A DNA stretch of 64,000 bases from Escherichia coli. Lineage in GTDB: Bacteria; Pseudomonadota; Gammaproteobacteria; Enterobacterales; Enterobacteriaceae. The position numbers were made by a program, and so were the translations under genes. Each line of letters starts with the position of its first letter. The stretch's first letter is position 1. The notes under the pieces were generated by a model that had not been told where the DNA came from, did no database searches, and worked only from the letters and a program-made list of their open reading frames with translations. Positions 5,092 to 5,300 of this stretch are shown here, piece after piece. The stretch lies in assembly GCF_003018255.1 (NCBI RefSeq), contig NZ_CP027440.1; one strand, given 5' to 3'.

Positions 5092-5300
5092 GTGCAGTGA
5101 TGCCTGATGCGACGCTTACGCGTCTTATCAGGCCTACGGTTTACGGGCGAAGTGTAGGCCGGATAAGGCGTTCACGCCGCATCCGGCAGCCGTGCGCAGA
5201 TGCCTGATGCGACGCTTTTCGCGTCTTATCAGGCCTACGGCTTACGGGTGAAATGTAGGCCGGATAAGGCGTTTACGCCGCATCCGGCATGCGTGCGCGG
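5092..5300. repeat. BIME: two tandem ~100-bp units, each holding two inverted REP palindromes, plus a truncated third unit
   Basis: Unit gtgca(g)...gatgcctgatgcgacgc...gcgtcttatcaggcctacgg...gtaggccggataaggcg...cgccgcatccggca repeated at ~5092-5190 and ~5192-5292 with few mismatches. Confidence 0.85.

Follow-up and report, generated by a model that had tools for sequence, protein, structure and literature searches.

What kind of element fills the gap between the converging genes yaiL and frmB of Escherichia coli, how do its alleles come to differ between strains, and what could it do at the ends of the two genes? We addressed these questions in a stretch of 64,000 nucleotides from an E. coli genome (contig NZ_CP027440.1), which we call the window. 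The stop codons of yaiL and frmB are 226 bp apart, and this gap is occupied by a BIME array in the order linker, Z2 REP, S linker and inverted Y REP, twice over, followed by a third copy of the linker (Table 1). Tandem Repeats Finder reports 5088-5304 as one tandem array (period 101, 2.2 copies, 89% matches, 0 indels, score 348). A gapless repeat search aligns 5116-5203 with 5217-5304 at 91% and 5088-5117 with 5188-5217 at 90%, and the inverted repeats give two palindromes per unit, on the + strand at 5102-5137 and 5202-5238 and on the - strand at 5154-5187 and 5255-5288. These searches bear out the original prediction of tandem units of about 100 bp that each carry two opposed REP palindromes, and the limits given there (5092-5300) are no more than 4 bases off the true limits, 5088-5304. 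K-12 MG1655 has the identical gene order (mhpE-mhpT-yaiL><frmB-frmA-frmR-yaiO) and the same two-unit array at the same locus (around K-12 positions 377,312-377,534), and the coordinates of yaiL are annotated identically in a near-identical genome, NZ_CP116067.1. From the yaiL stop to the first REP stem there are 22-23 nt; from the frmB stop to Y REP no. 2 there are 15 nt if counted to the start of the REP consensus or 16 nt if counted to the first paired base. An open reading frame of 68 codons (5200-5406, + strand) runs through BIME unit 2 into the antisense strand of frmB and is almost certainly a by-product of the repeat and no gene.

Table 1. Features of the yaiL-frmB intergenic region and the genes that flank it (positions in the window).
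Feature	Position	Strand	Basis and remarks
yaiL (DUF2058 protein), CDS	4539..5078	+	Stop TAA 5076-5078; ORF list, K-12 synteny
Tail-side linker motif copy 1, AGCCGTGCAGTGAT	5088..5101	+	Left array edge; tandem-repeat start, segment table
Z2-type REP no. 1, GCCTGATGCGACGC-TTAC-GCGTCTTATCAGGCCTAC	5102..5137	+	Pattern scans, Z2 consensus; hairpin -21.4 kcal/mol
S linker of unit 1, head-to-head, GGTTTACGGGCGAAGT, 16 nt	5138..5153	+	Published S-linker definition
Y-type REP no. 1, - strand GCCGGATGCGGCGTGAACGCCTTATCCGGCCTAC	5154..5187	-	Y consensus; about -21 kcal/mol on both strands
Y-linker-Z2 module over the joint of units 1 and 2	5157..5235	+	Rfam RF02564 (naRNA4) match
Tail-to-tail linker motif copy 2, AGCCGTGCGCAGAT	5188..5201	+	Unit 1/unit 2 joint; repeat searches, segment table
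Z2-type REP no. 2, loop TTTTC	5202..5238	+	Pattern scan, folding
S linker of unit 2, GGCTTACGGGTGAAAT, 16 nt	5239..5254	+	Segment table
Y-type REP no. 2	5255..5288	-	First hairpin of the frmB transcript; pattern scan, folding
Tail-side linker motif copy 3 plus GC, ATGCGTGCGCGGATGC	5289..5304	+	Tandem repeat, allele comparison
frmB (fghA, S-formylglutathione hydrolase), last gene of the frmRAB operon	5305..6138	-	Stop TGA 5307-5305

To assign the element to a class, we typed its REPs against the three REP references that Durrant et al. (PMC11208160) quote and the description in Ton-Hoang et al. (2012; PMC3333891), who restate the BIME nomenclature of Gilson and Bachellier. In that scheme, BIME-1 elements combine z1 and y REPs in a single copy with a long L linker, often with an IHF site, and BIME-2 elements combine z2 and y REPs with a short S linker in tandem copies that are flanked by s, l or r linkers and vary in number between strains (Ton-Hoang et al., 2012; PMC3333891). 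We found that both + strand palindromes fit the z2 consensus GCCTGATGCGACGC..GCGTCTTATCAGGCCTAC and that the reverse strands of the other two fit the y consensus GCCGGATGCGGCG..CGCCTTATCCGGCCTAC. Both S linkers are 16 nt long, as compared to the 35-nt linker in a BIME-1-like element elsewhere in the window (24986-25083), and the tail-side linker motif AGYCGTGC... occurs three times, at 5088, 5188 and 5289. Because it has z2 and y REPs, a short S linker, tandem units and flanking linkers, we classed the yaiL-frmB element as a BIME-2. It shares with the class the alternating inverse z2 and y REPs, the head-to-head S linker, the tail-to-tail linkers, the tandem arrangement, the extragenic position at gene 3' ends and the variable copy number, and we found no substantial difference. 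With two units it is among the smaller members of the class (REP325 has six), and its S and tail-side linkers are locus-specific, which is normal for the family (Ton-Hoang et al., 2012; PMC3333891).

The same comparison decides the claim, made in the original prediction, that the tandem units bind IHF. BIME-1 elements have REPs of the same superfamily and also lie at the 3' ends of transcription units; however, they are single-copy and have a z1 REP and a long L linker with an IHF site, whereas the yaiL-frmB element has z2 REPs and is without an IHF core. No match to the IHF core WATCAANNNNTTR was found in 5079-5304 with one mismatch allowed. We rejected IHF binding for the BIME-2 class, the IHF site being a property of the BIME-1 L linker; IHF-binding REP elements are named RIBs in the title of Boccard and Prentki (1993). 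The earlier statement properly fits BIME-1 elements such as the one at 24986-25083, which consists of a Y REP, the 35-nt linker and an inverted Z1 REP, contains a one-mismatch IHF core (AATCAGTATATTG, 25032-25044) and sits between the converging genes yaiZ and ddlA (by the annotation of DETEC-S792). Two further REP loci were seen in the window. At 36387-36471, between the converging genes mak and araJ (by the annotation of DETEC-S792), there is a lone Z2-S-Y unit with a different S linker of 14 nt (AAAATGAGCAACCC) and another IS621 target (36413-36423). At 3099-3132, between mhpE and mhpT, there is a solitary Y-type REP with the degenerate head CCTAT instead of CCTAC.

To describe how the number of units differs between strains, we searched 5,426 complete E. 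coli genomes with an 841-bp query that includes the unique flanks and found the locus in 5,259 of them. Units were counted in an evenly spaced sample of the ranked matches from these 5,259 genomes. Two units are present in 16 sampled genomes (span 838-841 bp), including K-12 derivatives and APEC O1, and one unit is present in 22 (span 737-740 bp), including O157 Xuzhou21, O111 and ZH193; one further sampled match is interrupted. From this sample we estimate that about 40% of genomes have two units and about 60% have one, and a query with the junction only agrees. We give only the sample-based estimate because other BIME-2 loci reach the 80% coverage line in the junction-only query: one follows sdhB, and another, found in K-12-type genomes, is 95% identical. 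No three-unit allele was found in two spread samples or among the best 30 matches to a synthetic three-unit query, all of which have two units and a span of 841, and rare three-unit alleles may exist in other lineages. No zero-unit allele was found among the sampled genomes. Copy number at this locus is thus strain-variable, as had been predicted, since one- and two-unit alleles were both sampled and the same two-copy structure is not found everywhere. That about 60% of strains have one unit also indicates that the second unit is dispensable.

To see how the one-unit and two-unit alleles are related, we compared 15 alleles base by base (seven with two units, the window included, and eight with one unit) after splitting them into segments. 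Several one-unit alleles match a whole unit of a two-unit allele: that of C289 is K-12 unit 1 followed by the K-12 right flank, that of LR1 is unit 1 of AH25, and that of TUM11353 is unit 2 of the 2015-01-2097 allele. Others are mosaics. In O157 and O111, the linker and Z2 loop of AH25 unit 1 are fused to the Z2 head, S linker and Y REP of AH25 unit 2, and in ZH193 a left linker of A20 type is fused to a unit 2 of A20/BP0083 type. The crossovers in the one-unit alleles fall in at least four intervals: the left linker, the Z2 5' arm, the Z2 3' arm, and the Y arm or right linker. Judged by their sequences, the one-unit alleles are best read as recombinants of different two-unit alleles, and crossovers in at least four different intervals indicate that a unit was lost repeatedly from two-unit ancestors. 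Units 1 and 2 differ at about 10% of positions and yet each is recognisable in distant strains, indicating that the two-unit state is old relative to the diversification of E. coli. The reverse route, in which a single unit is duplicated and one copy alone diverges, requires many more changes. The recent duplication implied by the original prediction therefore did not hold up; the variation within E. coli goes back to an old two-unit array from which a unit was repeatedly lost.

A second BIME-2 in K-12-type genomes (NZ_CP043209.1, 3558501-3558658, and similar loci) is 95% identical to the yaiL-frmB junction, S linkers included, and K-12's own yaiL-frmB junction is less similar to the junction in the window (93.9%), a hint that BIME-2 loci far apart in the genome may have exchanged sequence. 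DETEC-S792 is 100% identical to the window over the BIME locus (841 bp). At 6269-6727 it has an IS200C transposase gene between frmB and frmA that splits the frmRAB operon, and the window is without IS200C.

The loss of a unit is most simply explained by recombination or replication slippage between the 100-bp direct repeats. A different mechanism, implied by the earlier description of the element as a substrate of REP-associated tyrosine transposases, is that copy number changes when RayT (TnpA-REP) cleaves and rejoins the DNA at C|T sites. TnpA-REP requires that a GTAG precede the foot of the hairpin on its 5' side, that the stem contain a mismatch and that the inverted REP offer C|T sites for cleavage (PMC3333891). 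We found GTAGGCC four times in the element, two per strand, an internal stem mismatch in every fold, and the cleavage-site motifs TGCC|TGAT twice and GGCC|TAC four times. Z2 REP no. 1 has both cleavage-site motifs (TGCC|TGAT from 5101), and Y REP no. 1 opens with the conserved GTAG when viewed on the + strand. The substrate features are thus present, and so are all sequence requirements of the enzyme in vitro. As to the gene itself, there is no rayT within the 64-kb window, but the two genomes that most resemble the window (best match 99.6% over 25 kb) each have an intact copy. By megablast, rayT is detectable in 3,574 of the 5,426 complete genomes (66%) and undetectable in 34%, which fits the published loss of rayT from most B1 strains and some B2 strains. 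The rayT matches form two identity groups, one at ≥99% and one at 90-95%. Also in favour of this mechanism, TnpA-REP builds products with several REPs in vitro and its authors proposed the enzyme as the cause of BIME-2 copy variation (PMC3333891), and the extended third copy in the window ends at most 1 base from the TGCC|TGAT cleavage site expected in a full unit. However, crossovers in at least four intervals suit homology-driven exchange along a 100-bp repeat better than cleavage at fixed sites, one-unit alleles occur in B1-type strains such as O111 despite the reported loss of rayT from most B1 strains, and C|T is too short to discriminate between the two models. We consider it distinctly unlikely that RayT, and not general recombination or slippage, drives the change in copy number.

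The right-hand end of the array was described in the original prediction as a truncated third unit that runs into frmB. The resemblance to a further unit is real: ATGCGTGCGCGGATGC (5289-5304) shares 13 of its 16 positions with the beginning of unit 2, for which the probability by chance at a fixed site is about 4e-6. However, this stretch terminates at the base that precedes the frmB stop (5305-5307, reverse strand), so that it abuts the stop codon and does not enter the coding sequence. We read it as one more copy of the tail-side linker motif found at the borders of all units, with two bases added; in the window allele the likeness extends two bases into what would be the next Z2 REP. The right flank differs between alleles. 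The sequence ATGCGTGCGCGGATGC is found in the window and in ZH193, most strains have AGTCGTGCACTATTA, also given as AGTCGTGC(AC)TATTA and GTCGTGC(AC)TATTA, K-12 has AGTCGTGCTATTA, and one outgroup Escherichia has an intermediate sequence, AGTCGTGCGCGATTA. When we searched with a 74-nt query, the window-type right flank was present in 787 of 5,419 records at ≥95% identity (about 15%). As the flank differs, so does the distance from the frmB stop to the Y REP, which is 15-16 nt in the window, 14 nt in the commonest allele and 12 nt in K-12.

To look at the array outside E. coli, we scanned for the conserved yaiL C-terminus in one genome per species, which returned 120 loci. REP seeds follow yaiL in only three of these, all in Escherichia, indicating that the array is genus-specific. 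In two of the three, frmB adjoins; the third runs off the end of its contig. Each of these outgroup Escherichia species has a single unit that combines features of units 1 and 2, and the duplication may have taken place within E. coli or earlier. In Escherichia whittamii (locus L078), frmB is truncated and only residues 4-67 are left. The endpoint of the deletion lies exactly at the Y REP tail (GCATCC|CCGATTTGG...), which suggests a REP-associated deletion. In the same scan (loci L015-L134), the C-terminal YaiL peptide DFKVPDDLMW was found without change in many genomes of Enterobacterales (Yersinia, Serratia, Pantoea and Proteus) and in some of Pseudomonas and Zoogloea; this is strong conservation for a DUF2058 protein of unknown function.

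IS621 is an IS110-family element that is guided by a bridge RNA. Its natural target in REPs is ATCAGGCCTAC with a CT core (PMC11208160), and we found this target in both Z2 REPs of the element (5127-5137 and 5228-5238), as in the natural REP targets that are occupied in nature; the window itself is without IS621. In AH25, IS621 is present in the first Z2 REP at ATCAGGCCT^AC (locus L003, 1205-2490), and the junctions in AH25 and RM11911 read ...ATCAGGCCT|IS621...TATCT|ACGG. The junction of yaiL, Z2 and IS621 is present in 99 of the 5,426 complete genomes, including AH25, RM11911 and 55989. In RM11911 the insertion is in a one-unit allele. Being an IS621 target is a by-product of the Z-type REP sequence and is not special to this locus. 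In RM11911 (locus L138, 1866-1959), the left end of IS621 has a 47-bp tandem duplication, with TTGTATTATCCCTCCAGTGCAGAGAAAATCGGCCAGTTTTCTCTGCC present twice; judged by match span, RM13745 and RM13752 have it too. Part of the bridge RNA, together with its promoter context, is encoded at this end, so that the duplication might matter for IS621.

We then considered the array as RNA. The predicted folds of the two strands are much more stable than those of shuffled controls (z = -6.9 and -8.6), and the folding energies of the eight REP hairpins, four on each strand, lie between -20.9 and -21.9 kcal/mol. An orientation asymmetry, in which each converging mRNA would meet the stabler REP first, was rejected on the narrow range of these eight values. 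In an alignment of 17 units, made up of first and second units of arrays, single units and outgroups, 37 of 55 unpaired columns vary as compared to 11 of 48 paired columns (Fisher p ~1e-5). Between units 1 and 2 of the window there are nine differing positions, none of them in stems. The REP arms are conserved in sequence, and the loops and linkers are variable. There were no compensatory changes, with 0 of 24 pairs altered on both sides across the 17 units; 97.3% of cells are paired, the same as in the shuffled control because the columns hardly vary. We rejected covariation as support for an RNA structure on this ground, stem conservation being uninformative either way. Since compensatory changes are absent, the conservation of the stems could reflect recognition by a protein, homogenisation among REP copies or recent common descent in place of selection on an RNA structure.

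The Rfam model RF02564 (naRNA4) matches 5157-5235 on the + strand at 81 bits, against a gathering threshold of 59.5, and this is the sole match above threshold in the 64-kb window. It might be read as a naRNA4-like gene for a nucleoid small RNA that condenses the chromosome together with HU, all the more since a 2015 study reported that naRNA4 and HU condense DNA and that the two-hairpin shape alone matters. However, naRNA4 was defined in that study from one Y-l-Z2 repeat of REP325, a six-unit BIME-2, so that the match merely restates the BIME-2 class; any tandem BIME-2 will match the model, and the reverse strand here reaches 57 bits. The element shares with REP325 (the yjdM-yjdN BIME-2) the Y-linker-Z2 module and its predicted two-hairpin fold. 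In contrast to REP325, which has six units and lies between tandem genes within one operon, it lies between converging genes and has one complete module. That module is restricted to two-unit alleles and is thus missing in about 60% of strains, and upstream of it there is no promoter-like site within the intergenic region. A 2026 preprint whose authors include the senior author of the 2015 study also found REP325/naRNA4 to be without effect on nucleoid volume or REP-REP contacts (bioRxiv 10.64898/2026.03.23.713779), and the nucleoid role of naRNA4 is now contested. The RF02564 match reveals no separate gene, and a nucleoid small RNA at this locus is extremely improbable.

What, then, could a BIME-2 do between two converging genes? 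No intrinsic (Rho-independent) terminator, that is, a hairpin followed by a T run, was found on either strand of 5079-5304. Published work on other elements of the class offers a guide. REP325 acts as a terminator that depends in part on Rho and also stabilises mRNA, and the presence of REPs between two converging genes goes with higher expression of both; the effects of REPs are context-dependent, and terminal REPs do not generally lengthen mRNA half-life (bioRxiv 10.64898/2026.03.23.713779). Gyrase cleavage is enriched in BIME-2 elements, chiefly at y REPs (PMC6379681). By analogy, the likely role of the array would be that of a two-way block of hairpins at the transcript ends combined with a gyrase site. 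The four hairpins of about -21 kcal/mol on either mRNA would form a transcript-end module that works in both directions: they would block 3'-to-5' exonucleases, and they would attenuate read-through, partly via Rho, in place of the absent classical terminator. On the DNA, the Y REPs would be preferred sites for gyrase, which would relieve the positive supercoiling that accumulates between converging transcription units. The number of units and the length of the right flank would act as small natural tuning knobs. We consider it highly probable that the yaiL-frmB element is a BIME-2 of the E. coli REP family with this proposed transcript-end hairpin and gyrase role. Neither frmB nor yaiL is named in the supplementary text of the gyrase-mapping paper, where sites are possibly listed by coordinate; the single match to yaiL in the supplement of the REP325 preprint is an unrelated row of an expression table; and the literature that names both genes amounts to one genome announcement.

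The main alternative readings differ in whether the array has a host function and at which step it acts. It could be a repeat that is selfish or neutral, persists between converging genes because an insertion there is harmless, and is kept uniform through exchange with the several hundred other REP copies. The one-unit and two-unit states are both common, the stems are conserved without compensatory changes, another BIME-2 in K-12-type genomes is nearly identical to the junction, an IS621 insertion in the element is tolerated in 99 genomes, and outside Escherichia there is no REP downstream of yaiL, all of which would be expected of such a repeat. However, the samples contain no zero-unit allele, and other BIME-2 elements have published effects on termination, mRNA stability and gyrase cleavage (PMC6379681; bioRxiv 10.64898/2026.03.23.713779), so that a complete lack of function appears somewhat unlikely. 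Alternatively, the main role could be translational and coexist with the role at transcript ends: a ribosome that ends at frmB would stall on the Y REP, the product would be tagged by tmRNA and less FrmB would be made. REP-induced ribosome stalling and tmRNA tagging are the mechanism of Liang, Rudd and Deutscher (2015), the limit reported for it is <16 nt, and the distances from the frmB stop to the Y REP, given above for the three alleles, are in or near this range. The window allele lies exactly at the threshold, however, the yaiL side is beyond the range at 22-23 nt, and frmB is absent from the RepRanger supplements, and we regard stalling as the main role to be unlikely. A bolder form of the same idea is that the natural alleles make up a graded regulatory series for formaldehyde detoxification, set by the stalling distance at FrmB together with the number of units. 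The distances of 12, 14 and 15-16 nt straddle the reported limit, and the presence of one unit or two would alter how strongly the transcripts that converge from yaiL and frmRAB are terminated and shielded. If this were true, the repeated loss of units and the replacement of flanks would reflect selection on FrmB output and not neutral repeat instability; we think it very improbable.

Taken together, these data place the yaiL-frmB array in a class whose biology is long known (about forty years) and for which copy-number variation has already been published. The element is of little import in itself, since it fits the definition of a BIME-2 point by point. What the locus adds is specific to it: the rough census of units, the multiple origins of the one-unit alleles and the occupancy by IS621 in 99 complete genomes. 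The alleles are usable as a small example of BIME-2 dynamics, and they make available a natural allele series for the effects of REPs on termination, mRNA stability and stalling close to the stop codon.
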